NCBI GenBank assembly: GCA_965205505.1
Contig: CBDBHB010000009.1
Coordinates: 960,001-1,024,000, forward strand
DNA from: Acidobacteriota bacterium
Lineage (GTDB): Bacteria > Acidobacteriota > UBA890 > WLXD01
Reading direction: 5' to 3'
Length of the DNA stretch: 64,000 bases
How positions within the stretch are numbered: position 1 is the stretch's first letter; the number at the start of each line of letters is the position of its first letter. The translations under genes and the position numbers were made by a program. Positions 39,851 to 58,769 of the stretch are shown here, one piece after another. Below the pieces are notes generated by a model. That model was not told where the DNA came from, did not search any database, and saw nothing but the letters and a program-made list of their open reading frames with translations.

Positions 39851-41252
39851 CACCGAGCTGGTGGCGGCGTTGCGACGCCTACGCCAGGTCGCGGGGGCAA
39901 TGAACGAGAAGGTCGCCGATGGCCCGGTTTCCGAATCGTGCACCGTGACCGAGGTGCGCGCCCGGATCGGCGGTCTCTTCGATCTTGCCAAGCCGACCTC
40001 ACCCGACGAGCTTGTCGAACGGGTCGTCGAGCGGTTGGCGGCCGACACCGTGCACGTCACCCACCCGCGCTACTTCGGGCTCTTTAACCCCGCTGTTCCG
40101 CCGATCACGGTAGTCGCGGATGCGTTGGTGGCGATGTTCAATCCACAGCTTGCCGCATGGGAACATTCGCCTGCAGCTCAGGAGATGGAGCGCCTGGTGC
40201 TCGGCTCGCTGGGACGGCTCGTCGGCCTGGAGCTTGACGGCGGCATGGCCCACTTCACCAGCGGTGGCGCCGAGGCCAACGGTACCGCGACGCTGGCGGC
40301 GCTGGTGGCGGCGTTCCCGGCTCTGCCTGAGACCGGGCTGCGAGCGCTGCCGGCGCAACCAACGCTCTATCTTTCCGGGCAAGGTCACGACACCTTCTTG
40401 AAGATCGCCGTCGCCTGTGGACTGGGCCGAAAGGCGGTGCGGCGCGTCCCGGTTGACGATGATTTCCGCATGGACGTGGCGGCGTTGCGCGATCAGCTGC
40501 GGCGAGACCGAGCCCGCGGTGAGCAGCCGTTTCTGGTGGTCGCGACCGCCGGCACGACGGCGACGGGGGTGATCGACCCGCTCGAGTCGATTGCCGAGGT
40601 GGCAGGCGAAGAGCGCCTCTGGATGCACGCCGATGCCGCTTGGGGCGGTGGCGCGCTCCTATCGGAGCGCCTCCGACCGGCACTAGCCGGCATCGACGCG
40701 GCAGATTCGATGACCTGGGACGCTCACAAGTGGCTATCGGTGCCGATGGCCGCCGGCATGTTCTTCAGCCGCCGCCCCGCCGCCGTACGTGCGGCGTTCG
40801 ACGTCCACGCGACGTATGTACCGCCCAGTCCCGAAGGCGCCGACGATCCCTACATGGTTTCGTGGCAGTGGAGTCGCCGGTTCATCGGCCTCAAGGTGTT
40901 CATGGCTTTGGCCGAGGTCGGGCTGCAAGGCTACGCGGAGCGCGTTGAGCATCAGGCAGATATGGGCGATCGCTTGCGTCGACGATTGGGGGAGTCCGGC
41001 TGGTTGCTGTGCAACCGTACTCCTCTGCCGCTGGTTTGCTTCAGCCATCCGCAGATCGAATGCGGCCACACCACCGCGCCCGAGGTGGTCGCGCGGGTCA
41101 TCGCCTCGGGGCGGGCTTGGGCCTCGACGATTCACCTGCCCACCGGCGCGGAGGTCATTCGCGCCTGCGTCTGCAACTATCGCACCAGCCCCGAAGACAT
41201 CGATGCCACCGCGCGTGCGTTCGACGGCGCGTTATCGATGACGGTCGGGTAG
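39843..41252 (+). CDS. Group II PLP-dependent amino-acid decarboxylase
   Basis: HPRYFG, SGGAEAN, TAGTT.TG.IDP, HADAAWGG, DAHKW. Confidence 0.9.
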   Translation: MPDTELVAALRRLRQVAGAMNEKVADGPVSESCTVTEVRARIGGLFDLAKPTSPDELVERVVERLAADTVHVTHPRYFGLFNPAVPPITVVADALVAMFNPQLAAWEHSPAAQEMERLVLGSLGRLVGLELDGGMAHFTSGGAEANGTATLAALVAAFPALPETGLRALPAQPTLYLSGQGHDTFLKIAVACGLGRKAVRRVPVDDDFRMDVAALRDQLRRDRARGEQPFLVVATAGTTATGVIDPLESIAEVAGEERLWMHADAAWGGGALLSERLRPALAGIDAADSMTWDAHKWLSVPMAAGMFFSRRPAAVRAAFDVHATYVPPSPEGADDPYMVSWQWSRRFIGLKVFMALAEVGLQGYAERVEHQADMGDRLRRRLGESGWLLCNRTPLPLVCFSHPQIECGHTTAPEVVARVIASGRAWASTIHLPTGAEVIRACVCNYRTSPEDIDATARAFDGALSMTVG

Positions 41253-41570
41253 CCAGCGGTGGCAGGTCATGTCCACGCGCCCGTCGCTCCCGAAGCTCAC
41301 GCCCTCGGCCTCGAGTCGCCGTCGCTGGCGTCCGGGGGATGTTCCCGCGACGCGATCCGTCGAGCACTCTCCACGCACGCTCACTACGCGGTGCCACGGA
41401 ACGTCGTCCGGACAGTCATGCATGGCCCAGCCGACGGCACGCGGTGTCAGCGGCCGAGTATGGAGCGCAGCTACCTGGCCGTAGTTCATTACCTGTCCGG
41501 AGGGAATCTGGCGCACGATGTCCCACACCTCGTGCCAGGCGCTGGTCTCGCCGCTCTTCAGCCCCGCCAC
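41232..41570 (-). CDS. atl: Alkyltransferase-like protein (Atl/YbaZ)
   Basis: IP.G.V..YGQVA, RAVG, PWHRV (Trp replaces Cys), Q...LEAEG; GTG overlaps the permease TAG. Confidence 0.85.
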   Translation of the reverse strand: MAGLKSGETSAWHEVWDIVRQIPSGQVMNYGQVAALHTRPLTPRAVGWAMHDCPDDVPWHRVVSVRGECSTDRVAGTSPGRQRRRLEAEGVSFGSDGRVDMTCHRWLPDRHR

Positions 41571-44500
41571 TATCGCTCCGCCTTGAGGGCCGGCAGGAGC
41601 GGCACGCGCAATGTCCCAATTACCGCCGCCAGACTCGCCAGCATGCCGACCACGAGCACCGCGGCAAGCGTTGGCAACAGGACGCCCCACGGCAGCTCGA
41701 CTGCAGCAAGGGCAAACCGCGGGGCGATTGCCAGCAACGCCGATGCGCTGCCGATCATCGTGCCGACGGCGAGTAGAAAGGCGTTCTCGGCAAGCACCAT
41801 GCGCGCCAGGAAGGCGCGCCGAAATCCGAAGGCGCGCAGGGTGGCGAGCTCGCCGCGCCGCTCGATCACGTTGCGTACCAGGACAACTCCGAGCCCGATT
41901 GTACCGAGGAGCAGGCCCAGTCCCCCCAGTGCCTGGAAAGTCGACAGGTAGGTGTTCTGCACCACGAGGAAGCCGGCGATTCGCTCGGCCGTCGGCGTGG
42001 CGTCGAAGCCGAACCGTTCGAGACGGTCTTCCAGCGAAGCCGCGATCTCGACCTGACGCCCCTCGGGCGCGTCGATGAGGAAATACGAGAAGCCACTTCG
42101 GCCGGGGAAATAGCGCAGCAGGTTGGCTTCCGAAATCAGCAACTCGCTCTGGAAGATGCTCTCCTGAACAGTGCCTACCAGCCGCAGCGTGAGCTCCTCG
42201 CCGCGCTCGCCCTCGATGGTCAACTCGCCGTCGACCGGCAATTTGAGAATCCACTGCATTGAGTTGGCGTCGCCGATAGCCGGGATCACTCCCGGACCCA
42301 GGTCGACGCGTAGCAACTCCCAGGGGTTGGCGCTCGCCTCCAGCTCGGCGCTCAGCGCAGCGAACCGAAAGCCGCCGCGATCGATAAGCTCGTCCGTTGC
42401 CCCGAGCAGCCGCGGTCGGCGCGGCTGAAACAGGTTCAGGCAGCTGGCGTCGTCCCCCGGCACCAGCCGAAGCTGGGTGATCCGCACATCTTGCAGCCGC
42501 GCCTCGGCAGTGGCGTCAAAGCCGAGATCGAAGCGTCCGGCGACGTCGTTGAGGTTCTGATGCAGCGGTACGTCGGCCATCGCCATGAGCTCGTAGCCGC
42601 CGGCGCCCTCCTCGATAACGTGGGATTCGCGGGCCGGGTCGCGGGTGTTGCCGGCCACTGTGACGATGACGAAGCACGCCGACGCTACGAGTGCCACGCT
42701 TAGAATGCTGCGGTTCGGGCTCCACGAGCTGCTTCGAACCGCCATGCCGAGCGCCGCGAAGCCGGAGCTCCTGAGGCGCCCGCGCCCCCGCCGACACCAA
42801 GTTGAGAAGGCCGCCAATCCGGCAGTCAGCAGTAGCGCGCCGATTCCGAAAGCGATTCCCGGGTTAGACGTTTGATCGCCCGCCAGCGCGTACCCCAGCA
42901 GACCAATTGCAGCGGCGAAACACAACGGGGCCAGCCAACCACGGTGCTGGCGTTCGCCAGCGGTGGCGGCAGGCATCCTGGTCACACCGGCCAGCAATCG
43001 GGTTGGCGGCAATCGACGCAAACGCCGCACAGCGATCCATATCGAGCCAACCACAGCGATCGCAGAGATGGCGAACCCGATGACCAGCGTGACCGGCAAC
43101 ACGTGCAGATACAGCAGCGGCGAGCCCACCGCCGCCAGCCAGATCGTCCGCAAACCCCAGAGCATGAGGTTTCCGTAAAGCACCGCGGCGACCAATCCGG
43201 CGGCACCGCCTAACGCTACGATCGCCGCTCCCTCAGTCAGGAATTTTCGCTGCACGTGTCTCAGCGGGTAGCCAACCGCCAGCAGCAATCCGATTTCCTT
43301 GCCGCGCTGTTCGATGCCGAGGGTGAACAGCAGGCTGACGATCATCAACGCCGACAAGATGAGAAAGAAGCTGAAGGCGAGAAACAGCTGGCCGAAGTCG
43401 GTTGCCCCAGCTGCAGCCTCGAGGCCCTGGCTCTTGATGTCGACAAAGCGGAACCCATAGTCCTGCGGCTCGAGCCGCTCGAGCAGGATCGAGCCGAGCT
43501 CGAAGCTGAACGTGGCCGGGTCGACGTCCGCGGGGACCGCGACCCGAACCGACGTGGTGGCGCCATATCGCGTGCTCCACAGCCGTTGGCCGGTATCCGC
43601 CGCGACGAAGGACTTCGGTGTGCCACGGTAGGCGTCCCAGTACTCCTCGTCGACGTCGCGGATGGTGCTCAAGTCGACCGGGAACGGTGGCTCCCAGTCG
43701 GCAATGTTGTCGATGCCCTCGATGCCCGGATACTCGGGCGTCAGATCGGCGTCCACCGCCAGGCCGCGCATCGCAACGGTTCCAGCCACGCGGAAGCGGG
43801 TCTCCTCGGTGCGCAACTGCTCATCGAGCCCGACGACGTAGTAGCTCATGCGCAGCTCGTCGCCCGTTGACGCACCGAGCTGGGTCGCAGTCCACTCGTT
43901 GATCAGAATCTCGTCCGCTGCCAGCGCCGGCGCCGGCGTTCCGTCGACCAGATGCAGCCGCCCGAACGGCAACGAGTCGTCCAAGACGTCCAGGGCCAAC
44001 ACCATCGAATAGGGTACCTGGCGGTCCGCGACCCGCAGGCTGTTCGACATGTAGACCTGCAGACGCTGGGTCGGTGCTCGGAGGTCGCGCGCGGCGGCCT
44101 CGATGGTCTCCACCAGCGCCGCTCGAAGGACGAACTCTTCGCTCTCGATCTCGATGAGCGTAGTGTTCGCGGGGCCCTCGATGGCGCTTAAGCCGAGCCC
44201 GATGTCGGCGAGGGTCAGCGAGGTGACCAGCAAGGGCTGAGGGTCGGCAACGCTGGTGCCGCGGCGGTCCAGCAACAGGGAATTGACGCGTCCCGGTTGC
44301 TCGACAGCAGCCTGTAGATCGTCGAGCGACAAGAAGGCACTCAGCGGCGACGCCTGGTGCGGGTTGAGGTCGAAGCGGCCGATTCCACGATCCGGCACGA
44401 CCTCGACCAGACTCGTGCGTATCGTGCCGACTACGTCTTCCGCCTCGCGGCTGCCCAGCAAGGTATCGCGAGGCACCTCGCTGCCGAGCCGGAAGCGCAC

Positions 44501-45007
44501 CAATATTTGGTCGCCCACCACGGCACCGAGCTCGCGCTGCAGCGACGCGTTTATCACGATGGACGGGAACAATTGGCCGCTGCTACGGGCGAAGCTCATC
44601 GCGGGTTGGCGGTCGCCAGCCTGGCTTTGGAATACCGGGGAGGTTGTCGGTTCGTCGAACAGCTCGACGAAGGCGTCGTCGATGCCCAGCACATTGATCT
44701 GCGACGCGCGTGCGCGGGTGTCGGCATGCACGGCGTTGCCGCGTAGCAGGATGGCGCCCGCAACCCGTTCGAACCCGGCGGCGAAGCCGGGGAGCGCCGC
44801 TATCTCATCGACGAGCTCGGCGCGGAAGAAGCGCTCGGCGACCAGCGATGTATCGATGTGGCCCAGTCGGTCGAGGGTGATGTCGCGGAGGCTGGCGCGT
44901 ACCGAATCCCCCACCAGCAGGGCTCCGGTCAGCACCGCCGCGCACACGGCTACGGCTAGCGTGACGGCAAGGTTGACGCGCCAATGGTGGATCAGACCTC
45001 GAAGCAT
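41570..45007 (-). CDS. Large duplicated FtsX/MacB-type ABC permease
   Basis: Two TM bundles with EQR.KEIGLL.AVG and ERRGELATLRAFG. Confidence 0.88.
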   Translation of the reverse strand: MLRGLIHHWRVNLAVTLAVAVCAAVLTGALLVGDSVRASLRDITLDRLGHIDTSLVAERFFRAELVDEIAALPGFAAGFERVAGAILLRGNAVHADTRARASQINVLGIDDAFVELFDEPTTSPVFQSQAGDRQPAMSFARSSGQLFPSIVINASLQRELGAVVGDQILVRFRLGSEVPRDTLLGSREAEDVVGTIRTSLVEVVPDRGIGRFDLNPHQASPLSAFLSLDDLQAAVEQPGRVNSLLLDRRGTSVADPQPLLVTSLTLADIGLGLSAIEGPANTTLIEIESEEFVLRAALVETIEAAARDLRAPTQRLQVYMSNSLRVADRQVPYSMVLALDVLDDSLPFGRLHLVDGTPAPALAADEILINEWTATQLGASTGDELRMSYYVVGLDEQLRTEETRFRVAGTVAMRGLAVDADLTPEYPGIEGIDNIADWEPPFPVDLSTIRDVDEEYWDAYRGTPKSFVAADTGQRLWSTRYGATTSVRVAVPADVDPATFSFELGSILLERLEPQDYGFRFVDIKSQGLEAAAGATDFGQLFLAFSFFLILSALMIVSLLFTLGIEQRGKEIGLLLAVGYPLRHVQRKFLTEGAAIVALGGAAGLVAAVLYGNLMLWGLRTIWLAAVGSPLLYLHVLPVTLVIGFAISAIAVVGSIWIAVRRLRRLPPTRLLAGVTRMPAATAGERQHRGWLAPLCFAAAIGLLGYALAGDQTSNPGIAFGIGALLLTAGLAAFSTWCRRGRGRLRSSGFAALGMAVRSSSWSPNRSILSVALVASACFVIVTVAGNTRDPARESHVIEEGAGGYELMAMADVPLHQNLNDVAGRFDLGFDATAEARLQDVRITQLRLVPGDDASCLNLFQPRRPRLLGATDELIDRGGFRFAALSAELEASANPWELLRVDLGPGVIPAIGDANSMQWILKLPVDGELTIEGERGEELTLRLVGTVQESIFQSELLISEANLLRYFPGRSGFSYFLIDAPEGRQVEIAASLEDRLERFGFDATPTAERIAGFLVVQNTYLSTFQALGGLGLLLGTIGLGVVLVRNVIERRGELATLRAFGFRRAFLARMVLAENAFLLAVGTMIGSASALLAIAPRFALAAVELPWGVLLPTLAAVLVVGMLASLAAVIGTLRVPLLPALKAER

Positions 45008-45660
45008 CGACCCTCCCGTAACTCCAGTCGACGCCCGAAGCGTTGTGCCAGATCCGAGTTATGCGTCACCACGACCAGAACGTTGGACTCCTGCTCGTGC
45101 AGCTCGAGCAACAGCTCGGCCACGGCGTTGGCGGCTCGATGATCGAGGTTCCCGGTGGGCTCGTCGCACAGCAGCACAGCCGGGCGATTGATCAAGGCTC
45201 GGGCAATTGCGACCCGCTGGCGCTCGCCGCCCGACAACTGTGCCGGCCGGTGATCGAGTCGGTGCCCCAACCCGACGCGCTCCAGCAGTTGCCGGGCGCG
45301 TGCCGCACCTGCGGCATTGCCGGGAAACGCCAGCGTAGGGACGATCGTGTTCTCGAGCACGCTGTACTGCGGTAGCAGGTGATGATCCTGAAACACGAAG
45401 CCGATCGACTCGTTGCGGAAGCGAGCCATATCCGGCTCGCTCAGAGCGAACGGGTTGCGACCGCCGATTTTCACGTCGCCAGCGGTCGGCGGCTCGAGCG
45501 TACCTATGATGTGCAGCACGGTGCTTTTGCCTGAGCCGGACGGACCCATGATCGCCGTCGAGTCTCCCGCAGCGACGTTGAACGAGACTCCGTCGAGCAC
45601 CGGTACGGTGGCGTCACCCATCTCGAATTGCTTGACGATGTTGGTGACCTGCAGGTCCAA
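44992..45660 (-). CDS. ABC ATP-binding protein (LolD-like)
   Basis: GPSGSGKST, LSGGERQR, LCDEPTGNLD. Confidence 0.92.
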   Translation of the reverse strand: MDLQVTNIVKQFEMGDATVPVLDGVSFNVAAGDSTAIMGPSGSGKSTVLHIIGTLEPPTAGDVKIGGRNPFALSEPDMARFRNESIGFVFQDHHLLPQYSVLENTIVPTLAFPGNAAGAARARQLLERVGLGHRLDHRPAQLSGGERQRVAIARALINRPAVLLCDEPTGNLDHRAANAVAELLLELHEQESNVLVVVTHNSDLAQRFGRRLELREGRCFEV

Positions 45661-45687
45661 GCGACTCCTCCCAATATGCCTGCCGGG

Positions 45688-46113
45688 TTACTCGACGCTC
45701 CCCGCTTCCTGGATCTGGTCGGCGATGAAGGCAGGGATCTCTATGGCCCGCGGACCCGATTCCTCCATGGCACAGCACACAGAGGTCATCGAGCCGGTGC
45801 CAACAAGACGCTTGCCGACGTGGATCGAGAACCCGTACGTCATCGCCTTCCTTCCCTTGCGTAGCACGCGGAGGTGGATGTCGACAACGTCGTTGAAACG
45901 TGCCGGCGAATTGAACTGTGCTTCGACCGCCACCCGCGGCCATCCGAGCTGCATGCCGTCGTGGTGCATGTGCACGCTCGCGCCGAGCGAGTCGATGAAG
46001 GCGTGCTCGGCATTCTCCATGAACACGATCAGCCGAGAGAAGTGCACGATCCCGGCCATGTCGGTATCGGAGAACTCGACTTTCCGCTGAATCCTCAGCT
46101 CGTGCATACCCAT
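45688..46113 (-). CDS. Hotdog-fold acyl-CoA thioesterase (YbgC/4HBT-like)
   Basis: VEFSDTDMAGIVHF motif. Confidence 0.88.
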   Translation of the reverse strand: MGMHELRIQRKVEFSDTDMAGIVHFSRLIVFMENAEHAFIDSLGASVHMHHDGMQLGWPRVAVEAQFNSPARFNDVVDIHLRVLRKGRKAMTYGFSIHVGKRLVGTGSMTSVCCAMEESGPRAIEIPAFIADQIQEAGSVE

Positions 46114-47393
46114 CGCTCATACTCGCGTAGCGTCGCCGCTGCCATGGCCTCGTCCGAGAACTCACGGTGAACCGCTTGGCGGCCGACCCGGCCGAGCTCA
46201 CGGCCTCGTTCAGGATCGCGCATCAGCGCCTCGAGCGCATCCACCACCGCGTCATCTGACTCTGGATCCACCAGCACCCCTCCGCCAGTCCACTCGATCA
46301 ACTCCGGAAAGCCGCCGTGCGCGGGTACGACTACGGGCACGGCACTGGCCATCGCCTCCAGCGCCGGCAGCCCCTTCGATTCCCGGTAAACGGTTGGCAG
46401 GCAAAGGACGTCGATCGAGCTGAGGAATTGCATCTTGCCGTCGCGATCGACCTCGCCGACCCAATCGACGCGGTCCGACAGTCCCCAGTTCGTCACCCGG
46501 CGTTGCTGCTCGTCGACGTAGGCCGCGTCGCGCTTGCCCACGTAGCCGGCGATACGCAGGCGCACGCGCTCTTGTCCGACCCGTCGGGTCAACTCGTGGA
46601 AGGCCGCGACGAGACGATGCACTCCTTTTTCCGGACAGAGCCTGGCGAGGAACCCGATCGTGTACGGCTCGTCCGCAGACCGCGCCCGCGTCTCGTGTCC
46701 GAACAGCGTGACCCCGAGGGGCACCACGCGGATCTTCTCGGCCGACGTTGCCAGGTAGCCGCGCACATGGTCGGCGTAGTAGCGGTTCGGTGCTAGGAAG
46801 CCGTCGACATCGATGGCGTGGGTGCGTAGCTCCGCCACGAAACGCGTTCTGTAGGGTTCTACGAGCTGATCGATGAAGATGTCCTCTCCTTGCGCGCCGC
46901 AAAGCACCGGCACGCGGAGCTCGCGTTTGAGGGTTCGCGCCAGGCCCAACAGCAAGGCGTTGGTGATGTGCACGATCTGCGGTTTGAACTCGTCGCGCAG
47001 CCACGCAACGAGGCTTTCGAGCTCGCGCCGCTGACGGCCATCCTCGCCCCGCAGCACCGACAACGCCAGTGCGCCCAGCTCCTCGCCCTGCGTGGCGCTC
47101 GAGCCCGCCAGCCGCGAGACGTTCCTGAGCAGAGCCGGCCGATCGAGTAACCAGTGCAGGATGCCGGGACGACGTCGGAAGAGCTTCCAGTGCTGCTCCA
47201 GGTAGACGTTGACAGCGCCATAGAAGACGCGGTCTATGCTGACGTCGTCTTCGTCGGTGCGGATCGGCGTGTACATGGGAACTAGCGCCACATCATGTCC
47301 GCTCTTCTGCAGGGCGGCTGCCAGTGTGTTGTCGTGCAGGCAGCTACCGCAGTACATCCCCGCCGCGCCAGCCGTGATGTAGGCGATGCGCAT
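46095..47393 (-). CDS. Glycosyltransferase family 4 with N-terminal CxxC
   Basis: GT-B motifs RL.PEKG, E.KGLP.LEAMA; N-terminal GMYCGSCLHD. Confidence 0.88.
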   Translation of the reverse strand: MRIAYITAGAAGMYCGSCLHDNTLAAALQKSGHDVALVPMYTPIRTDEDDVSIDRVFYGAVNVYLEQHWKLFRRRPGILHWLLDRPALLRNVSRLAGSSATQGEELGALALSVLRGEDGRQRRELESLVAWLRDEFKPQIVHITNALLLGLARTLKRELRVPVLCGAQGEDIFIDQLVEPYRTRFVAELRTHAIDVDGFLAPNRYYADHVRGYLATSAEKIRVVPLGVTLFGHETRARSADEPYTIGFLARLCPEKGVHRLVAAFHELTRRVGQERVRLRIAGYVGKRDAAYVDEQQRRVTNWGLSDRVDWVGEVDRDGKMQFLSSIDVLCLPTVYRESKGLPALEAMASAVPVVVPAHGGFPELIEWTGGGVLVDPESDDAVVDALEALMRDPERGRELGRVGRQAVHREFSDEAMAAATLREYERWVCTS

Positions 47394-47403
47394 GCAGCGT
47401 CGC

Positions 47404-47592
47404 CTAGCGGGCCGTGGTGAAAGTGTGGTGGGTCTGGTTACGCCGTAACCCTTCGGGCAACAGGGGGTTGCGCGCGTATGCTGCGTCGTTCCTCGTCAAC
47501 GATGGGGTAACCATCGTCTCCTCCTCTCTCCTTGCCTGTACTTCGCAAGTTTCTGTCGCCAGACCCACCACACTTTCACCACGGCCTGCTAG
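47404..47592. mobile_element. MITE-like element (TIR type C), inverted and internally deleted relative to 32209-32487
   Basis: ctagcgggccgtggtgaaagtgtggtgggtctgg ... ccagacccaccacactttcaccacggcctgctag; right CTAG holds the SSS stop. Confidence 0.88.
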
Positions 47593-49058: not shown

Positions 49059-49282
49059 CGGTGGTCTCCGGAATCATCGATTTCGAGGTGGTGCGGCCAT
49101 GCTTGGGTGACGAGCAGGTACATCACCACCGCCGTCGCCCCCATGTACGCGATGTGGTAGAGCAGCCCCATCGGTAACCCGAAGCGTAGGCGCGCGTCGT
49201 TCCAGAGCCACCAGTCATTGTGGAGCACATAGAGCAGCGCCAATGAGCCGTAGAGTCTCAGCCGATTGCCACTCATGCGCAC
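49055..49282 (-). CDS. Small two-TM SSS accessory protein (DUF3311-like)
   Basis: LHNDWWLW..FGLP.G motif, coupled to the SSS gene. Confidence 0.78.
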   Translation of the reverse strand: MRMSGNRLRLYGSLALLYVLHNDWWLWNDARLRFGLPMGLLYHIAYMGATAVVMYLLVTQAWPHHLEIDDSGDHR

Positions 49283-49334
49283 CTCGTCGGACCGTTCTTC
49301 AATGGGTTGTGGCGTTTGCTGGCTCCGGGCTGCC

Positions 49335-50609: not shown

Positions 50610-52816
50610 CAGAACTCGTAGCCGAGGCGCAAGGTGGCGGCCACCGGGCTCGCCGGGGTGATCGATTGTGACCCGAATCCGCGGACGAAGTATGCCGAGT
50701 CGGTCAGGTTCTGCACGTTGACGCTGACTCGGTAGCGCGACCAGTCGTAGGCCAGGGTGCCCGAGATGGTGAATGCGTGGTCAATGTTGAAGACGTTGTC
50801 CTCGGCGATGAACTGATTGCCGATGTAGCGGCCGCCGAGACTAATGCCCAGCCCATGGCTGAACGTCTTGCTGGCCCATACGTTGATGAGATGCTCCGGC
50901 GCGAACGCCGGGCGGTTGCCGGCATGGTCCACGGTTTGCGCAAACGGCACACCAAGTGGGGTGAAGCCGGTAACGCGCTCGGTGAACTCCGTCAGCTCGG
51001 CGTCGTTGTAGGCGTATGAAACTACCCCACGGAACCCTTGGCCTGGCTCGGCGGCAAGCTCGAGCTCGAAGCCCGAGGAACGTTGATTGCCGATTTGCTG
51101 CGTGAAGCCGTTGTCGTCCGGGATCGCGATGTTGTCGCGCACCAGGCGGTACACCGCGGCGGTCGCTTGCAGGCGCCCGTCGAGCAATCGCAGTTTGAGG
51201 CCGAGCTCCACCTGCTCGCTCTCCTCGGGCTCGAGGTCCTCGAATGTACGGGGCGACGGTGGCGCGAACGAGCGCGAGTAGTTTCCGTAGATCGACACCT
51301 CGTCGTTCGCGGCCCAGGATGCGCCCAGCATCGGCGACAGCTTGCTGTCGTTGCTCGACCGTCCGGTCAGTTGATCGTCGAAGTCGACGCTGTCGAGGCG
51401 GGCGCCGGCGAGAATATACAGTCGCTCGGCGAAGGTGATCTGGTCGATCGCATAGGGGGCGACGACGATGCTGCGCGCGTCGCCCGCACCGATGCTTCCC
51501 AAGGGAAACGGCGGCAAGCCGGGCTCGACCGGATCGAACAGATCAACCGAACCGAGCAGGAAGGCATCGAGCGTGAACTCGTCGGTATAGCGGGACGTCT
51601 CGATACCGGTCAGCAGGCTGTGGTGCACATTGCCGGTATCGAAATCGAGAATTGCCTCGAACTGGCTGCCCAGTACCCTCTGCTGGTCGTCGAGCTGGAT
51701 CTGCGAACGGGCCACTATTGTTCGGCCGGTAGGTACGAACGCCGGCGTGAACTCGGGAAACGCGCCGATCAGCAGTGTGCCGTCCGACAGCCAGTCGAGG
51801 CCACGGTAGTAGAGCTTGCTGCGGATCCGAACCGTATCGCTGAGCCGGCCCTCGTAGTCGAGTTGGAAGCGGTAGATGTTTTGCTCGGACCGATCGCTGG
51901 CGGCGTTGTAGTTGTTCTCCAGCCGCACGGGCGGTATCTCGTTGAACAGTAACGGGATGCCCGCCTCGGGGCTGAAATCAGACCGCGCATACTCAAAGTT
52001 GACGTTGAGCGAGTGGTGGTCAGCGATCTCCCAGGTCAAAGCGGGGTTGAATGCCGTCGCGTTGCTATCGCGGTCGTCCCGGTATCCGGAAGAATCACGT
52101 ACGAGCGCGTTGACGCGGAACGCGACCCGTCCGTCGGCGGTCCCGTGGTTGGCATCGATCGTACCGTCGAACGTCGAGAAGCTGCCACCCGACGTGTTGA
52201 TGCGAAGCCCGTTGACAGCAAGAGGCTGCTTGCGCACCAGGTTGACGGTACCGGCCAAAGGATTGCTGCCGTATAGAAAGCCGCCCGGCCCCTTGAGAAC
52301 CTCGACCAACTCGATGTTGTAGAGCTGATAGAAGGTCGCCTCGGGCTCCGGGGCTCCGTCGGTGAGTATCAGGCTGCTGCTGATCGAATCGAAGCCGCGC
52401 ACCACGAAGAAGTCGTGCACGCCGCCGAACCCGGGTTGCACGTTGATGTTGCTGACGTTGATCAACGCATCACCGAGCACGTTCGCCTGCTGATCGCCGA
52501 ACAGTGCCGCGGTGACGATGCCGACGTTGTTCGGAGTCACGTGAAGCGGCAGCGAGAGCTTCGAGGCGATCGTGTTGGCGCTCGGTACTAGCGGCAGGCT
52601 GCCCTCCACGAAGATGAATTCGGTTGCCTGGAGTGGGAGCTGCTGCGCTGGATCGTCCTGCGGCGGAGACTGGGCGGCAGCGGTCATGGGAACCGCGATG
52701 CTCAGCACACATAGTGTTGTCTTCAAGATTCGCACGATCGGATTCCAAGGTTGGGGATCAACGTCGCCGGCGATAGTGCCCTGAGGCAGCCGTTCTCCGA
52801 GCGAATTTCGGTTCAA
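50609..52816 (-). CDS. TonB-dependent receptor (siderophore-receptor-like)
   Basis: Plug motifs VRGF and VEVLKGP...LYG; beta-barrel; C-terminal YEF; true start may be GTG 52735. Confidence 0.92.
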   Translation of the reverse strand: MNRNSLGERLPQGTIAGDVDPQPWNPIVRILKTTLCVLSIAVPMTAAAQSPPQDDPAQQLPLQATEFIFVEGSLPLVPSANTIASKLSLPLHVTPNNVGIVTAALFGDQQANVLGDALINVSNINVQPGFGGVHDFFVVRGFDSISSSLILTDGAPEPEATFYQLYNIELVEVLKGPGGFLYGSNPLAGTVNLVRKQPLAVNGLRINTSGGSFSTFDGTIDANHGTADGRVAFRVNALVRDSSGYRDDRDSNATAFNPALTWEIADHHSLNVNFEYARSDFSPEAGIPLLFNEIPPVRLENNYNAASDRSEQNIYRFQLDYEGRLSDTVRIRSKLYYRGLDWLSDGTLLIGAFPEFTPAFVPTGRTIVARSQIQLDDQQRVLGSQFEAILDFDTGNVHHSLLTGIETSRYTDEFTLDAFLLGSVDLFDPVEPGLPPFPLGSIGAGDARSIVVAPYAIDQITFAERLYILAGARLDSVDFDDQLTGRSSNDSKLSPMLGASWAANDEVSIYGNYSRSFAPPSPRTFEDLEPEESEQVELGLKLRLLDGRLQATAAVYRLVRDNIAIPDDNGFTQQIGNQRSSGFELELAAEPGQGFRGVVSYAYNDAELTEFTERVTGFTPLGVPFAQTVDHAGNRPAFAPEHLINVWASKTFSHGLGISLGGRYIGNQFIAEDNVFNIDHAFTISGTLAYDWSRYRVSVNVQNLTDSAYFVRGFGSQSITPASPVAATLRLGYEF

Positions 52817-54105
52817 GGAGTCTTCGAATCGGTGATTTCGAGAGCCACGAGCTCCTGTTCGTCACGCAAATAGAGGATTCCATTTGCCAGTGTGGGTGCA
52901 GTCCAGGTCCTGCCTCGGAACACCTGCGCCCGTGATACCTGGAGGTATTCCCCGGGACTGAGCTTGACGAGCGTCAGCGAGCCGCGGTCGCCCAGCACGA
53001 TCAGGTGACCGTCTGCATACAGCAGCGAGCCCTGTCCGTGTCCGCGCGCCCGCCACATTCTCTCACCACGACTCAACTCGATACACTCCAGGATCGAATT
53101 GTCGAAGCCGTAGATGTAGTCGTTGACCAGGACGGAGCTGCTGAATTGGTTCTTCATCTCCCGGGTGCGCCATACAGTTTCCACTCCGAGGCTGTCGCCG
53201 GTGAGGACGCGTAGCAGAGCCGCGCCGACCCCGTAGCCCGAGGAGACGAAGATCTTGTCGGGCGGTACGAAGATCGGCGTTGCCGCGTTGACGCCATATG
53301 TAGTCTCCCATGGCGTGTCCCACAACATTGCGCCGTTATTCGGATCCACGCCCACAATGCGCCGGCCGGTGAAGAATACGGCCTGCTGGCGCCCGCCGAT
53401 CTGCACCACTAGCGGCGTCGAGTAGCCCGGGGGGTCTCCGGCGGCGCGCCAAACTTCCTCGCCGGTGCGCTTGTCGAACGCCAACAGTGCGGCGCCGTGT
53501 CCGCCAGCCTCGACAAGGATGAGATCGCCGAAAACCCGCGGTGAGGTGGAGAACCCCCAATTCGGTCCGGTTGCCCGATACTCCTCACGAAGATCGTGCC
53601 GCCATGCCGTGGCTCCGCTCTCAGCCTCCACAGCGGCCAGCTGCCCTCGTCCGCTGATCACATAGACAAGGCCGCCGTCGACGGTCGGAGTGGAGCGCGG
53701 GCCATCCCCGGAGCTGTTGCGGTACATCTCGTCGATCCGAAGTCGCCAGCGCTCGACGCCAGTAGCCGTATCGAAGGCTCCCAGGTACGTGCCGCCACGC
53801 CCGAACATCGTGAAGGCGTGATCGCCGACGACGGAGACCCCGGAGAAGCCCTTGCCAAGCGGCACTCGCCAGACTTCGCGCGGTCCCGACTCTGGCCAGA
53901 CTTTCAGTAGACCAGTCTGCGGCGAGATGCCATCGGCGTTCGGACCTCGCAGCTGTGGCCAGTCCTGTGTCGCACTCAGCGTCTGTGCGAGAGGCCCGGT
54001 CAAGTGGTTCGCATCGACTCGCCGCAGTGCACCGGTCAATACGATCAGCAGTGCGGCGGCTACGGGCACAATCGCAACCGTGGCGACACCACGAGCCCAG
54101 GCCAC
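52813..54105 (-). CDS. PQQ-binding-like beta-propeller protein
   Basis: DWPQLRGP, GPRSTP, GYSTP, TWTAP. Confidence 0.88.
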   Translation of the reverse strand: MAWARGVATVAIVPVAAALLIVLTGALRRVDANHLTGPLAQTLSATQDWPQLRGPNADGISPQTGLLKVWPESGPREVWRVPLGKGFSGVSVVGDHAFTMFGRGGTYLGAFDTATGVERWRLRIDEMYRNSSGDGPRSTPTVDGGLVYVISGRGQLAAVEAESGATAWRHDLREEYRATGPNWGFSTSPRVFGDLILVEAGGHGAALLAFDKRTGEEVWRAAGDPPGYSTPLVVQIGGRQQAVFFTGRRIVGVDPNNGAMLWDTPWETTYGVNAATPIFVPPDKIFVSSGYGVGAALLRVLTGDSLGVETVWRTREMKNQFSSSVLVNDYIYGFDNSILECIELSRGERMWRARGHGQGSLLYADGHLIVLGDRGSLTLVKLSPGEYLQVSRAQVFRGRTWTAPTLANGILYLRDEQELVALEITDSKTP

Positions 54106-55478
54106 TACGTATACCGAGCGTCGCGATAGCGCTCGGAGTAGAGCTCAGGCAACAGGGCGTCCGCCTGTAGCAATCCCTGGCGAGTCAGCTCGATACCGTC
54201 GTCGGTGATGCGCAGCATCTGGCGCGATTGCAGTCGGCCCCAAGCTGCGGCGAAGTGCTCGACAACGTCGACGTTGAACTTATCCACGAAGTGCTTCCGG
54301 GCGAGGGCTCCGGTCTTGAGCTGTAGGATCGTCTCCCGGATCAGGCGGTCTTCGGGGCTCGTGACAAAGGCGCGCTCGAGCGGGAGCTCGTCGTTGCCTA
54401 CCGCTTCGAGGTACTCGGACCAGCTCGCAGTGTTCTGCACGTGGACTCCGCTCAAATGACCGAACGAGGAAACCCCGGTGCCCAACATGTCTGCGCCGTG
54501 CCACAGCGCGTCGCGGTAGACGAAATCGCAGCGCTTGTCGGCGCGCACCATCGTGTAGGCGCTAGATATCTCGAACCCGGCGGTCTCGAGCTGCTGGATG
54601 GCGTAGTCGTGCCACTCGCGCTTCAGCGCCCAGTCGGCCAGCGGCACTTCGAGCCTGCCCTCCAGGAACTGCTTCGAGAAGCGCGTGTTGTAGGGCAGCT
54701 CCATCTGATACACGGTCACCGAATCCGGGTGTGTATCGATCGCCTGTTGCACGCTGTCGCGCCAGGTTTCCCACGTCTCGCCGACCATGCCGGCGATCAG
54801 GTCGATGTTGAGTTGATCGAACGCCAGATCGCGGATCCACGGCAGCACCCGAAAGATCTCCTTGCTCATGTGGGCGCGTCCGTTCAATTGCAGAATCTCG
54901 TCGTCAAAGTTTTCCACGCCTAGGCTCAGCCGGGTGATCCCGAGCTCGCGCACGGTCTCGAGCTTGGTCTGGGTGAGGGTGCCCGGCTCGCATTCGAAGG
55001 TGACTTCATCGACGTTGTCCCAGGGCAGTGCCGCGCGCAGCCGGGCCACCAGGCCGCGAAGGTGCTTTGCGGCTATGTAGGACGGGGTGCCGCCGCCGAA
55101 ATACACGAACCGCAACGGGCGCCCGACGATCGCCGGCGCCCTGGCGTAGCGATCGATCTCACGGGCGAGCGCATCGCAGTAGACCTCGACCTCATCGGCG
55201 TTCTTGTCGGTATAGACGCGGAAGTAGCAGAACTTGCACCGCTTTCGACAGAACGGGATGTGGAGATAGAGCCCCAGCGGGGGGGCGTCACCGGCCGCCG
55301 GAGTATCGAGCACCTGTCGGTACTTCGGCAACTGGTCGGCCGTCCATTGTGAGAACGGCGGATAGTTGGATACGAAGACGCTGCCGACGCCGGTCGTTTC
55401 TCGCTGCGTCCGTGACGTTGCGGGCTCGGGGTGAAACTCGGGAGAAGAGTCGGCTTCTGGCAGCGCGTCCTGGCCCAT
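54105..55478 (-). CDS. HemN-like (class C) radical SAM enzyme, probably not HemN/HemW
   Basis: YLHIPFCRKRCKFC, YFGGGTPS, RLSLGV, NIDLI.G. Confidence 0.9.
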   Translation of the reverse strand: MGQDALPEADSSPEFHPEPATSRTQRETTGVGSVFVSNYPPFSQWTADQLPKYRQVLDTPAAGDAPPLGLYLHIPFCRKRCKFCYFRVYTDKNADEVEVYCDALAREIDRYARAPAIVGRPLRFVYFGGGTPSYIAAKHLRGLVARLRAALPWDNVDEVTFECEPGTLTQTKLETVRELGITRLSLGVENFDDEILQLNGRAHMSKEIFRVLPWIRDLAFDQLNIDLIAGMVGETWETWRDSVQQAIDTHPDSVTVYQMELPYNTRFSKQFLEGRLEVPLADWALKREWHDYAIQQLETAGFEISSAYTMVRADKRCDFVYRDALWHGADMLGTGVSSFGHLSGVHVQNTASWSEYLEAVGNDELPLERAFVTSPEDRLIRETILQLKTGALARKHFVDKFNVDVVEHFAAAWGRLQSRQMLRITDDGIELTRQGLLQADALLPELYSERYRDARYT

Positions 55479-55483
55479 TGATC

Positions 55484-56626
55484 TCAACCGAAGCAGTAGA
55501 GGTCGCCGTCCTCCGTCCCGATTACGAGGCGCCCCGAGGCCAGGCTTGGCGACGCGACGATCGACGACCCAGTTTCAAATTGCCACACAACCGCCCCGGA
55601 CTGTGCGTCGAGCGCCACCAGGTCACCGGAGCTTCCGCCCACGAATACCCGATCACCGACGATGACCGGTGACGAGTCGACGCGTGCACCGCTCGAGTGG
55701 GTCCATAGTGCCGCGCCCGTCGCCGGGTCGATCCCGTGCACCATCTTGTCGCGTCCGCCCACGACCAGTAGCTCATCGGTAACCGCGGCGGAGGAATAGA
55801 ACGGGAACTTGCGCTTAGGGTGCTCATAGGCCCATCGTCGCTCGCCCGCCAGGGTCACCGCGAGCACCTGGTTCTCGTAGGTGCCGAAATAGGCTACGCC
55901 TTCGCGAATGGCTGGGCTCGCCGCGACGTATGCACCGATCTCGATGCTACCGAGCAATACGCCGTCCTTCAGCGCGATGAGTCGCAGCACGCCGTCGCAT
56001 CCGACCGAGATCACCGTGCCGTCGACGATTGCCGGCGTCCCGTTTATGTAGCCGCCGGTCTCGATGCTCCAGACAAGCTTGCCGTCTGCGGCCGCCACGG
56101 CGTAGAGGTGGTTGTCGTAAGACCCGAAGACCAACAGCCCGTCAGCATAATTGGCAGCCGAGACGATGCCACCGCCGGTCTGGTACGACCATTGCTCGCT
56201 GCCGCTCTCGACGTCGAGCGCGTAGAACGTACCCGACTCGTCGCCGAAGTAGACCGTGTTGCCGAAGATCGAGGGCGAAGATCTCACCTCGCTGCCAGTC
56301 TCGAATCGCCACAGCTCGGCGCCGCTGTCGAGATCCAGCGCATAGAGGCGACCATCGAGTGAGCCGACGAAAACTCGACCATCGGCGATTGCGGCGCTCG
56401 ACTCGATGCTGTCCTCTGCTGAAAAGACCCACCGGGGCTCCGGTGCCGCCGGCAACTCGATGTTGGCCGTGCCGGTGAGCGCCGCGTTGCCGCGGAACAC
56501 ACGCCACGCGTTGTCGACCCGGCCGTGCGCGACGCCGGTGGCGACGACGACGGTACAGATCGCGCCTATCCCACCCACCATGCGCCGGTGGCGGGCTCGA
56601 ACCGTGCTCTCAGTACGCCGATTCAT
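55484..56626 (-). CDS. PQQ-binding-like (BamB-like) beta-propeller protein
   Basis: Signal peptide; about eight regular SSP..GxxDG.LYA blades. Confidence 0.9.
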   Translation of the reverse strand: MNRRTESTVRARHRRMVGGIGAICTVVVATGVAHGRVDNAWRVFRGNAALTGTANIELPAAPEPRWVFSAEDSIESSAAIADGRVFVGSLDGRLYALDLDSGAELWRFETGSEVRSSPSIFGNTVYFGDESGTFYALDVESGSEQWSYQTGGGIVSAANYADGLLVFGSYDNHLYAVAAADGKLVWSIETGGYINGTPAIVDGTVISVGCDGVLRLIALKDGVLLGSIEIGAYVAASPAIREGVAYFGTYENQVLAVTLAGERRWAYEHPKRKFPFYSSAAVTDELLVVGGRDKMVHGIDPATGAALWTHSSGARVDSSPVIVGDRVFVGGSSGDLVALDAQSGAVVWQFETGSSIVASPSLASGRLVIGTEDGDLYCFG

Positions 56627-57773
56627 AAATGCTCAGCAGCTCGTTGGCGTCCACCGGACGCGGATTGAAGGTGGCGGTCCATTGTTGCGCAGCCTCCGCC
56701 GCAAGCTCGCCGAGGCTCGCTTGCGGTACGGCGTGGGCACGCAGCCGTGGAGCCGCCCCGGCACTTCCCAGCATCGCCGCGAGGCGTCCGGGTAGGTCAC
56801 TGACCTCGAGGACATCGTACTCGGTGGCGGCGTCATCGCACGCCATGTTGTAGCGCACTACGTACGGCAGCATGACGCCGACGGCGATACCGTGGGTGAT
56901 GCCGAACCGGGCAGTCAACGGATTGGCGCAGGCGTGCGCCGCACCCAGCATGGAACGTTCGATCGCCGCCCCCGCCAGGTGCGCGCCGAGCAACATGTGT
57001 CCGCGTGCCTCGAGGTCGTCCGGCGTGGTCACCGCCGCCTCGAAGGCCGCCGATAGCAAGCGCCAAGCCTCACGGCTGTAGAGCCGCGAGATCGGGTTGG
57101 CACGCGAGCTGACCAGGCTCTCGACGGCATGCGAGACGGCGTCGATACCGGTGGCGACCCGTACGTCGCGAGGTACCGTCCCGGTGACTCCAGGATCGAG
57201 AACGGTAGCTCGGAAACGGGCCCCCGGATCGCCACACGCCATCTTCCGATGGTTGTCGAGCCGCGAGATCAGCGCGTACGATTGCGCTTCGCTGCCGGTT
57301 CCCGCGGTGGTCGGCACGCCGATCGACGGCAACATCTCCGTATGCGCCTTTCCGGTTCCCTCGTAGTCCTCCATGCGGCCGCCGTTGGTGTACAGGAAGT
57401 TCACGCCCTTCGCCGTATCCATGGAGCTGCCGCCACCGAAGCCGATGAGCAGGTCGACGTCGTGTCGTCGGGCAGCCTCCACGCCTGCCTCGACGCACGC
57501 CGTACTCGGGTTCTCCTCGACGCCATCGAAAACGGCGCAAGGGCACCCGAGCTGTATCAGCGCGGCGCCGAGCTCGTCGACGATCCCTGTCGCGCGTACG
57601 CCGGGATCGGTAATGATCAGCGGGCGTCGGGCGCCGAGCTCGCTCACGATCGACGGTAGTCGAGCGCGCTCGCCCACACCGAAACAGACATCAACGGCGC
57701 CCACCGTGGCGCGCCAGCGCGCTTCGCCGAGCGCCGGTGTAAGCGCCCAGACTCGAGGTTCAATCACACTCAT
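56610..57773 (-). CDS. Iron-containing alcohol dehydrogenase
   Basis: GGGSSMD.AK, PTTAGTGSE, DAVSHAVE, HG. Confidence 0.9.
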   Translation of the reverse strand: MSVIEPRVWALTPALGEARWRATVGAVDVCFGVGERARLPSIVSELGARRPLIITDPGVRATGIVDELGAALIQLGCPCAVFDGVEENPSTACVEAGVEAARRHDVDLLIGFGGGSSMDTAKGVNFLYTNGGRMEDYEGTGKAHTEMLPSIGVPTTAGTGSEAQSYALISRLDNHRKMACGDPGARFRATVLDPGVTGTVPRDVRVATGIDAVSHAVESLVSSRANPISRLYSREAWRLLSAAFEAAVTTPDDLEARGHMLLGAHLAGAAIERSMLGAAHACANPLTARFGITHGIAVGVMLPYVVRYNMACDDAATEYDVLEVSDLPGRLAAMLGSAGAAPRLRAHAVPQASLGELAAEAAQQWTATFNPRPVDANELLSIYESAY

Positions 57774-57791
57774 GGTGTCAGTTTGGCGGTT

Positions 57792-57811
57792 TCCACCACG
57801 GCCGTGGTGGA
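57792..57811. repeat. Perfect 20-bp palindrome made of TIR type C sequence
   Basis: tccaccacggccgtggtgga. Confidence 0.6.
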
Positions 57812-57905
57812 GCGACGGAGATCGGACGGGAGGCGATCGCAACTTCCCACGATAGCACGGTGCCTGGCGGGTCCGTATCGACGCGGCGCCGAGCCGTGGC
57901 GCCGC

Positions 57906-58766: not shown

Positions 58767-58769
58767 GCC

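Follow-up and report, generated by a model that had tools for sequence, protein, structure and literature searches.

The described systems closest to the locus reported here are the phenazine clusters with EhpF and EhpG, the baa and bmp loci, the 'Halo_AMP' orphan clusters of sponge metagenome-assembled genomes (MAGs), the carrier-tethered halogenation systems and the YbbAP, MacB and LolCDE transporters. The locus is a run of 13 genes in a stretch of 64,000 nucleotides (nt) from an Acidobacteriota bacterium (G000:C9:960001-1024000; "the window" below denotes this whole stretch), whose genome is 5.98 Mb in size and 96% complete. From the first gene onwards it encodes an iron-containing alcohol dehydrogenase (Fe-ADH), a secreted β-propeller (propeller 1), a HemN-like radical S-adenosylmethionine (SAM) enzyme, a second propeller (propeller 2), a TonB-dependent receptor, a halogenase-like flavoenzyme, a DUF3311 protein, an SSS symporter, a GT4 glycosyltransferase, a thioesterase, an ABC ATPase, an FtsX-type permease and an alkyltransferase-like protein (Atl) (Table 1). 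As the first-pass annotation of the window had supposed, no characterised pathway of this make-up was found in the literature, and no NCBIfam model was reached; known enzyme families are combined here without a studied counterpart, in an operon that is conserved across several phyla and is uncharacterised. The genes are tentatively read, with a confidence somewhat short of even, as the long form of a modular pathway that would tailor a small aromatic carboxylic acid, probably of the 4-hydroxybenzoate type, and hand its product to the cell envelope.

EhpF and EhpG of the D-alanylgriseoluteic acid (phenazine) pathway of Pantoea agglomerans (structures 3hgu, 3hgv and 3l2k) have reportedly been proposed to convert an aromatic carboxylate to the aldehyde via an acyl-adenylate. 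The present genome encodes an enzyme that resembles EhpF over its full length (384 vs 369 amino acids (aa)), and a gene of the aldehyde dehydrogenase (ALDH) family follows this adenylating gene as ehpG follows ehpF, an order given for phenazine clusters in a table of PMC11278526. The ehp cluster is without a halogenase, a HemN-like radical SAM enzyme, a GT4 and propellers, whereas the present system has all four. Of genes typical of phenazine synthesis, only PhzF-like ones, beside the operon in the window, were seen, and no search aimed at phzA/B, D, E or G was made.

The baaA-baaB genes of Planctomycetales strain 10988 and bmp5/bmp6 of Pseudoalteromonas follow the same logic as four of the loci compared here (L011, L026, L049 and L083; L and G numbers denote loci and genomes), where the flavoenzyme gene adjoins a gene for a chorismate-lyase-fold protein, called c8 below. 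For 3,5-dibromo-p-anisic acid, the text of a preprint gives a model in which a chorismate-lyase-like gene beside that of a halogenating flavoprotein leads to a halogenated 4-hydroxybenzoate, a model described there without genetic confirmation by its authors (bioRxiv 10.1101/723874). BaaB is Bmp5-like by that description, whereas the relatives of the flavoenzyme in the window are of the Bmp2/PltA/CndH type. The baa locus, as far as that text describes it, is without a radical SAM enzyme, a reductase pair, a GT4, a propeller and an exporter, which the present system has.

The 'Halo_AMP' clusters are described in the text of another preprint (bioRxiv 10.64898/2026.08.03.742642) as orphan clusters of sponge MAGs, from Acidobacteriota and Poribacteria and with an unknown product, in which a PaaK-like AMP-binding enzyme accompanies the flavin-dependent halogenase and which often contain PQQ-like domains, a radical SAM enzyme, a glycosyltransferase, a thioesterase and TonB-dependent transporters; the rule that defines them there is a Trp_halogenase and an AMP-binding gene in one neighbourhood. 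The likeness to the present system lies in the many gene families shared. Because no AMP-binding gene is among the 13 genes and the nearest adenylating gene is 41 kb off, the operon in the window would escape the rule as given in that text; its relatives L010, L036 and L099 have both genes in one neighbourhood. The 'Halo_AMP' clusters are reported there from sponge microbiomes, whereas the present system, judged by record titles, is frequent in lineages from soil and freshwater as well.

PltA, Mpy16, Bmp2, CndH and CmlS are solved relatives of the flavoenzyme, and on the NosN/NocN side the methyltransferase NocN is the second solved relative of the radical SAM enzyme. In contrast to the carrier-tethered halogenation systems, no carrier protein, nonribosomal peptide synthetase (NRPS) or polyketide synthase (PKS) is present here, and CoA would replace the carrier; identity to characterised carrier-tethered halogenases and class C radical SAM enzymes is low, and the equivalog cutoffs are missed. 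The ATPase resembles LolD, YbbA and MacB, and the permease combines FtsX domains with a weak match to the MacB periplasmic domain; unlike in those transporters, the permease is a single duplicated chain, the scores stay below the family cutoffs, and the unit is without a membrane-fusion protein or a LolA/LolB-like partner.

Conserved unit and gene order

The twelve genes from Fe-ADH to the FtsX permease form one conserved functional unit. Relatives were collected by a search seeded with the flavoenzyme, one genome per species, which gave 115 relatives (the nearest public record was an Acidobacteriota MAG with 95% identity), and 80 loci were kept. Neighbourhood genes were assigned by an open reading frame (ORF) choice weighted by cross-locus similarity and by tblastn with a fixed panel over all loci, and ten Acidobacteriota loci were fetched, eight of the long type (L091-L098) and two of the short type (L099 and L100). 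The complete gene order was also found in three close relatives (L007-L009). Across the eight long-type loci the order, with members that vary in brackets, is Fe-ADH, propeller 1, radical SAM enzyme, (propeller 2), (TonB-dependent receptor), flavoenzyme, (DUF3311), SSS symporter, GT4, thioesterase, ABC ATPase and FtsX permease, and it holds at 45-70% amino-acid identity in families f1, f2, f6, f33, f38 and f45. In the window, 9 of the 12 junctions overlap by 1-19 nt and the remaining three are gaps of 27, 52 and 195 nt, as measured from the starts of the longest ORFs.

Co-occurrence was counted in a sample of 151 Acidobacteriota genomes that includes G000, to which the window belongs. The flavoenzyme was present at E<=1e-60 in 38 genomes, the radical SAM enzyme in 35 and both in 34, which are referred to as carriers. 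All 34 strong flavoenzyme matches (E 1e-103 or better) share their genome with a radical SAM ortholog; the four genomes with the flavoenzyme only have the weakest matches (35-39% identity), and the radical SAM enzyme occurs by itself in G076 alone. In several genomes, G041, G057 and G084 among the unlinked cases, both genes are present though on different contigs or hundreds of kb apart. The radical SAM gene lies on the flavoenzyme strand in 28 of the 80 loci, and in 20 of the 44 that extend 5 kb or more to either side. These genome counts include two unpublished genomes, the carrier G049 and G024 with a weak flavoenzyme-only match; without them, both enzymes are found in 33 genomes, c8 in nine (all among the 33), a PaaK-like ligase in 11 of the 33 and two others, and an EhpF-like gene in 32 of the 33 and four others.

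A chance juxtaposition of unrelated same-strand operons would find room in the three intergenic gaps, and its modules do stand apart in other phyla; a promoter and terminator scan of positions 40800-58400 gave 0 promoter-like and 9 terminator-like sites, not above shuffled sequence. This explanation is already contradicted by the order kept over six families at the identities given above, by the nine overlapping junctions and by the near-perfect co-occurrence even of unlinked genes, and its probability is regarded as negligible.

The first-pass annotation had described 13 co-directional and mostly overlapping or abutting genes, and the ORF listing agrees with 13 minus-strand ORFs. Every gene family that it had named was recovered with Pfam, and the motifs that it had pointed out, WxWxIP in the flavoenzyme (here WFWYIP) and CxxC in the GT4 (here C15-G-S-C18), are present. 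It had seen no PKS, NRPS or carrier-protein family, and Pfam likewise gave no match to these among the 13 products; a precursor peptide was looked for only to this extent, as small ORFs were not systematically searched. Co-occurrence in other genomes, on which it had made its proposal depend, was found, with the order kept across families and phyla. Its 13-gene operon stands for the twelve genes from Fe-ADH to the permease and falls for Atl, which was found only in L007-L009 and L093, all of the window's family. The flanking genes for a GNAT acetyltransferase, two PhzF-like proteins, a PLP-dependent decarboxylase and an Ada-like protein are common only to that family as well; since Atl and these flanking genes are so confined, the conserved unit has 12 genes and not 13. 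The motif PCHRV is that of the MGMT methyltransferases, where Atl has VPWHRV with the active-site Cys replaced. The GTG start of Atl overlaps the TAG stop of the permease by one base, and Atl is a translationally coupled, family-specific passenger.

All system genes are single-copy in the window's own genome except those for propeller 2, the SSS symporter and the ABC ATPase. In G130, of the window's genus, a second, divergent pair of adjacent radical SAM and flavoenzyme genes was found on another contig (G130:C146:3401-5937; 42% and 48% identical to the proteins of the window), and G054 and G142 also have a second radical SAM copy, so that a single genome can contain the system in two versions.

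Halogenase-like flavoenzyme

The best matches of the flavoenzyme in the PDB are all halogenases (8zop, E 1.8e-60, then Mpy16, CndH, Bmp2, PltA and CmlS). The FAD-binding GxGxxG motif is present as G14-G-G16-P-A-G, with G14 and G16 kept in 77 of 79 family sequences (gaps in the other two), and W220, W222, I224 and P225 of the WxWxIP motif are kept in all 79. A Lys above the flavin is needed for halogenation; K75, present in 78 of the 79 sequences, aligns with the Lys of halogenases 8zop and 5buk. On the NCBIfam model for CmlS the score is 191.1 bits against a cutoff of 900, and with this cutoff missed the protein counts as halogenase-like but falls outside the characterised equivalog. On these grounds the flavoenzyme is taken to be flavin-dependent halogenase-like, of the phenol/pyrrole 'variant B' type.

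The models for QhpG, LodB and GoxB are also matched, all below cutoff (E 1.7e-42, 1.2e-30 and 1.1e-24, respectively; QhpG 145.8 bits against 240), which opens another explanation, a qhp-like maturation of a protein-derived cofactor, in which the radical SAM enzyme and the flavoenzyme would modify a protein residue, perhaps of a propeller, before export. QhpG is described in the text of PMC7876137 as a protein-tryptophan hydroxylase that is structurally halogenase-like and has both Trp of W-x-W conserved. A radical SAM enzyme, a flavoenzyme, a propeller and an ABC transporter do stand in one cluster, with propeller 1 always next to the radical SAM gene. This explanation is nevertheless considered very improbable. 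The 31 PDB matches at E<=1e-5 include ten halogenases but not QhpG (PDB 7CTQ); the radical SAM enzyme is HemN-like and not of the SPASM type; no small QhpC-like substrate gene is present, and the gaps of 27, 52 and 195 nt hold no small ORF on the operon strand; the propellers have Sec-type signal peptides; and c8, the PaaK-like ligase, the thioesterase, the EhpF/EhpG-like pair, Fe-ADH and GT4 would be left without a role.

HemN-like radical SAM enzyme

The CxxxCxxC (C80, C84 and C87) and GGGTP (G131-P135) motifs are present in all 39 radical SAM sequences, and the best PDB matches are HemN 1olt (E 5e-35) and NocN 9p2u (E 3.5e-27). On NCBIfam, the enzyme reached 195.9 bits with ChuW/HutW (TIGR04107, cutoff 400) and 182.6 bits with HemN (TIGR00538, cutoff 324.95). 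It is roughly equidistant from ChuW, HemN, HemW and NocN, and its neighbours are never heme-synthesis genes in the clusters compared. By sequence, it is a HemN-like enzyme of an uncharacterised subfamily. For a coproporphyrinogen dehydrogenase (HemN/CgdH), the motifs are present but the TIGR00538 cutoff is missed and the heme-synthesis context is lacking. Heme degradation by a ChuW-like enzyme with the receptor was rejected, since the ChuW cutoff is missed, some clusters do without the receptor and the cluster is not accompanied by heme genes.

Genes outside the window and other forms of the cluster

The system extends beyond the 13 genes, and three of its parts were out of sight of the first-pass annotation: an EhpF/EhpG-like pair and c8 are encoded outside the window, and a PaaK-like ligase in relatives. 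The EhpF/EhpG-like pair is located in the same genome at C9:1059197-1061815, on the same strand and 41 kb beyond Fe-ADH, and it stands directly upstream of Fe-ADH in L010, L094, L095 and L098. EhpF 3hgu is the sole solved relative of the EhpF-like enzyme (E 3.6e-40; residues 35-373 of 384 against 22-357 of 369), which is short and without the ANL C-terminal domain; the ALDH-family EhpG-like gene directly follows, and its Cys288 is invariant in 8 sequences. The EhpF-like gene is present in 33 of the 34 carriers and 4 of the 117 other genomes, and is 59-95% identical in all but one.

The c8 proteins are a family of about 190 aa without an NCBIfam match and below the gathering scores of Pfam PF01947 and PF04345, PF01947 being matched weakly by one of eight members (E 0.055). 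The c8 profile matches the DUF98 structure 2nwi (E 1.4e-4), and a predicted model (pLDDT 88.7) was placed by Foldseek nearest 2nwi (E 4e-8) and UbiC 1g81 (E 8e-5), followed by GntR effector domains. Judging from this model, c8 is a predicted chorismate-lyase-fold protein. It was found in 10 of the 151 genomes, all among the 34 carriers. In the window's genome, the c8 gene is located on another contig (C8:988392-988925), where nothing related to the system was seen nearby.

The PaaK-like ligase has AMP-binding and AMP-binding_C_2 domains (Pfam) and is encoded by 12 of the 34 carriers, against 2 of the 117 genomes that are not carriers. The best match in the window's own genome, 33% identical, was judged to be an enzyme of the phenylacetate pathway and not the ligase of the system; its neighbouring ORF is presumably enoyl-CoA-hydratase-like, a reading made by eye from the N-terminus.

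In other Acidobacteriota, the tblastn panel revealed a short form with propeller 1, the radical SAM enzyme, c8, the flavoenzyme, the thioesterase and the PaaK-like ligase, in which the thioesterase adjoins the ligase. Mixed forms were found in Poribacteria (L010), Planctomycetota (L011, L049 and L083), a Brocadiaceae MAG (L076), Verrucomicrobiota (L077) and a MAG labelled Actinomycetota (L073). Fe-ADH lies upstream of propeller 1 and the radical SAM gene in Acidobacteriota, Poribacteria and Planctomycetota, and the order flavoenzyme-DUF3311-SSS recurs in Planctomycetota (L011, L049, L066 and L078). In the flavoenzyme tree, the radical SAM-linked loci are scattered over most deep clades, and the nearest relative of the window's protein outside its own kin is that of the Poribacteria MAG L010. 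At 20 of the 80 loci, mostly planctomycete, a gene for a MarR regulator stands beside that for the flavoenzyme with no other system gene there; the planctomycete genomes of this kind encode a radical SAM ortholog elsewhere in five of five cases (52-54% identical), in the Fe-ADH/propeller 1/radical SAM arrangement at two of the four loci fetched.

A small multi-pass membrane protein of about 150-180 aa without a Pfam or NCBIfam match (m38) is encoded in or beside some clusters (L076:5256-5789, L022:14363-14896 and L031:13616-14305; also L091, L092 and L097), and the window's genome has only a 32% identical relative (C9:1241601-1242068). Around the radical SAM-flavoenzyme core, L031 has up to eight PQQ_2-type propeller genes and L036 five.

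Uptake genes

On NCBIfam, the receptor scored 215 bits with TonB-siderophor (cutoff 223.5) and the symporter 144.5 bits with sss (cutoff 184), with PutP, PanF and MctP also below cutoff. Siderophore synthesis, suggested by the receptor, was rejected, as neither an NRPS nor a synthetase of the NIS type turned up. The receptor is encoded in L091-L093 and L095-L098, that is, in seven of the eight long-type clusters, and not in L094; the SSS symporter is kept in seven of the eight, L095 having neither DUF3311 nor SSS; and the receptor, DUF3311 and SSS are all gone from the short-type clusters L099 and L100. From the joint presence of import and export genes in one operon, the first-pass annotation had suggested that an imported molecule is remodelled and then delivered to the envelope. 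The delivered molecule may, as it had added, be a cofactor or ligand for the two exported propellers. The import idea is supported only in part; import is not a requirement, given the clusters that lack one or both of the uptake parts and the 10 of the 34 carriers, the window's own included, which encode c8, a protein that could make the acid in the cell.

The same genes would fit a reading close to the first-pass idea, the uptake and salvage or recycling of an external aromatic compound, possibly pre-halogenated, which would be processed in a loop instead of being made de novo, with entry via receptor and SSS, re-tailoring or re-reduction in the cytoplasm and return via the ABC transporter. 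The translational coupling of the receptor and of DUF3311 and SSS within the operon, their frequency in the long-type clusters, the recurrence of flavoenzyme-DUF3311-SSS in Planctomycetota, and the rarity of c8 among carriers together with the lack of the PaaK-like ligase in the window's clade all argue for such a loop. MarR control is typical of responses to external phenolic acids, and the MarR genes beside the flavoenzyme point the same way. The loop is considered unlikely, if a serious alternative: L094 does without the receptor and L095 without SSS, the short-type clusters keep the radical SAM enzyme, the flavoenzyme and the thioesterase without either, the restriction of c8 to carrier genomes suggests that the acid is supplied from within, Pfam gave the unit no genes for ring cleavage or beta-oxidation, and a glycosyltransferase and an exporter suit biosynthesis more than catabolism.

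Propellers, export and remaining enzymes

The propellers had been predicted to be exported, which is borne out for both, and all propeller 1 orthologs examined have Sec-type signal peptides. The AF2 model of propeller 1 (pLDDT 91.4) was matched best by Foldseek to the designed Cake8, BamB and YxaL. The gene is directly upstream of the radical SAM gene in several phyla, and the closest paralog in the own genome is 34% identical. Propeller 2 is absent from the L091, L092, L094 and L095 clusters, and its query gave 26 matches in the own genome, the cluster copy counted.

The ABC ATPase scored 260 bits with LolD (cutoff 308) and 200 bits with YbbA on NCBIfam, and the permease gene occurs once in the genome, with orthologs 42-59% identical in L091-L096 and L098. 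The thioesterase scored 53 bits with YbgC (cutoff 141); at least 90% of 30 sequences retain D18, T17 and H24, D18 being the catalytic-type Asp of YbgC/4HBT. Fe-ADH matched ErcA best (228 bits, cutoff 550). In the GT4, C15 and C18 of a C-G-[STAN]-C motif near the N-terminus do not vary among the 15 aligned orthologs, which come from Acidobacteriota, Brocadiaceae, Verrucomicrobiota and L073. This motif (residues 15-18) replaces the usual glycine-rich N-terminal one and, judged from its residues, may be a metal or redox site.

These genes could also be read as a remodelling of envelope lipids or glycolipids, in which the thioesterase, the reducing pair, Fe-ADH, the radical SAM enzyme and the flavoenzyme would act on fatty acyl chains, the GT4 would make a glycolipid, and the LolD/FtsX-type transporter and the BamB-like propellers would place it in the outer membrane. 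An ATPase nearest LolD, YbbA, MacB and DevA, a BamB-like propeller fold, a YbgC/FadM-like thioesterase, GT4 matches that include glycolipid synthases (E 1e-14 or weaker), the membrane protein m38 of some clusters and 137 bits of the flavoenzyme on the geranylgeranyl-reductase superfamily model (cutoff 158.8) are consistent with it. Yet the flavoenzyme is far nearer to the aromatic-ring halogenases (E 1e-60) than to the lipid reductases (E 3e-10), the accessory genes specific to carriers are for a chorismate-lyase-fold protein and a PaaK-like aryl-acid ligase, and fatty-acid synthesis and acyl-carrier genes are lacking in the unit. EhpF, the only solved relative of the adenylating enzyme, reportedly was proposed to act on an aromatic dicarboxylate. 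The lipid explanation is accordingly held to be improbable.

Proposed tailoring of an aromatic acid

The genes with their families, the conserved gene order, the co-occurrence across genomes and the secretion signals are observed; what the tailoring pathway acts on, in which sequence its steps run and what it yields are inferred from family and context. The acid would be derived from chorismate by c8, encoded elsewhere in the genome, or be taken up by the receptor and DUF3311/SSS. The flavoenzyme would halogenate the ring, in the relatives probably on a CoA thioester formed by the PaaK-like ligase, and the hotdog thioesterase would release the acid after halogenation. The HemN-like radical SAM enzyme might add a one-carbon unit or modify the ring otherwise. 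Adenylation by the EhpF-like enzyme and reduction by the EhpG-like enzyme would convert the carboxylate to the aldehyde, and Fe-ADH would convert the aldehyde to a benzyl-type alcohol, to which the GT4 could attach a sugar. The MacB/YbbAP-type ABC transporter would then move the product from the inner membrane to the periplasm, where the secreted eight-bladed propellers may bind or use it.

A more specific version, to which little weight is given, is that a halogenated hydroxybenzyl alcohol or aldehyde (or a quinone-methide former) is made and recycled as the diffusible redox shuttle or a new organic cofactor of the propellers. The propellers would be PQQ-independent periplasmic 'quinoprotein-like' enzymes, the MacB-type exporter would release the reduced form, the TonB-dependent receptor and SSS would return the oxidised form, and the EhpF/EhpG-like pair and Fe-ADH would re-reduce the compound. 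Such a shuttle would account for the joint presence of import, export, reduction and propeller genes.

Several points weigh against the proposed tailoring of an aromatic acid. The sequence evidence for c8 is weak, the same fold serves as the ligand-binding domain in GntR regulators, and 24 of the 34 carriers have no c8, which makes the origin of the acid uncertain. The PaaK-like ligase was not found in the window's order or clade among the 151 genomes, with only the 33% identical match in the own genome, and the source of the thioester for the thioesterase is therefore unexplained there. The W-x-W motif, present also in the hydroxylase QhpG, is by itself no proof of halogenation, and no flavin reductase partner was found with Pfam among the operon's 13 genes. 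The chemistry of the HemN-like enzyme is not readable from its sequence, and the modelled propeller fold is generic and BamB-like and points to no chemistry. None of the 13 operon products reached a curated NCBIfam cutoff, nor did c8 and the PaaK-like, EhpF-like and EhpG-like proteins, so that functions are given at family level only. A search of sequencing runs listed 20 entries from 9 studies, with no RNA run among those listed. Finally, related genomes are not independent, and the co-occurrence counts overstate the support.

Gene list and surroundings of the operon

The genes of the locus and the ORFs around it are listed in Table 1. The GC content of the window is 62-68%.

Table 1. Genes of the locus and neighbouring ORFs, with positions in the window
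Feature	Position	Strand	Evidence
Fe-ADH, first gene of the conserved unit	56610..57773	-	Pfam PF00465 E 7e-45 + ADH_Fe_C
Propeller 1, PQQ-like/BamB-like, secreted, eight-bladed	55484..56626	-	Pfam PF13570 198.5 bits (cutoff 133) + PQQ_2
Radical SAM enzyme, HemN-like (class C type)	54105..55487	-	Pfam Radical_SAM + HemN_C
Propeller 2, optional member	52813..54105	-	Pfam PQQ_2 E 6e-42
TonB-dependent receptor, siderophore-receptor type, optional	50609..52816	-	Pfam Plug + barrel
Flavin-dependent halogenase-like flavoenzyme, phenol/pyrrole 'variant B' type	49335..50609	-	Pfam Trp_halogenase E 1.5e-24
DUF3311, small membrane protein, symporter partner	49055..49282	-	Pfam PF11755 E 4e-08
SSS sodium:solute symporter	47589..49058	-	Pfam SSF E 1.4e-36
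GT4 glycosyltransferase	46095..47393	-	Pfam Glycos_transf_1 E 2.5e-31
Thioesterase, hotdog-fold, 4HBT/YbgC-type acyl-CoA	45688..46113	-	Pfam 4HBT_2 + 4HBT
ABC ATPase, LolD/YbbA/MacB-type	44992..45660	-	Pfam ABC_tran E 2e-36
Permease, 1145 aa, duplicated FtsX/MacB-type	41570..45007	-	Pfam FtsX, two stretches; weak MacB_PCD match
Atl, alkyltransferase-like protein	41232..41570	-	Pfam DNA_binding_1 (PF01035) E 1.8e-21
Hydrophobic ORF, 78 aa	57906-58142	-	no Pfam match
GNAT acetyltransferase and two tandem PhzF-like isomerase paralogs	58044-60582	+	
Two PhzF-like genes (part of the preceding row)	58770-60582	+	
Ada-like gene and group II PLP-dependent decarboxylase	39008-41252	+	AraC HTH + MGMT domain (Ada-like gene)
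ORF, 351 aa	37191-38246	-	no Pfam family at E<=0.01

The 78-aa hydrophobic ORF, just upstream of Fe-ADH on the operon strand, is 74% identical in L009 and 69% in L093, and it may be an additional first gene of the operon in the window's family. The GNAT gene and the tandem PhzF-like genes are divergent from the operon, and the PhzF-like genes are conserved only in that family. PhzF acts on a chorismate-derived phenazine precursor, and the position of PhzF-like genes beside an operon whose system includes an EhpF-like enzyme is a curious coincidence. At the other side, the Ada-like gene and the decarboxylase gene converge on the end of the operon, the decarboxylase ORF overlapping the 3' end of Atl by 21 nt; together with Atl, these genes are a small DNA-alkylation-repair neighbourhood unrelated to the pathway.

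Significance

About one in five of the sampled Acidobacteriota genomes (34 of 151) carry the system, as do many Planctomycetota and some Verrucomicrobiota and Poribacteria, groups that are abundant in soil, freshwater and sponges and whose chemistry is almost unknown. The strong conservation, exemplified by the EhpF-like enzyme, suggests one defined metabolite with a physiological role and not a strain-specific antibiotic. The identity of the product would assign functions to a branch of HemN-like radical SAM enzymes, to a large clade of halogenases and to a family of secreted PQQ-like propellers, and would also explain an EhpF/EhpG-type carboxylate reductase outside the phenazine pathways. 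Natural organohalogens in soils could also be traced to a bacterial source in this way.

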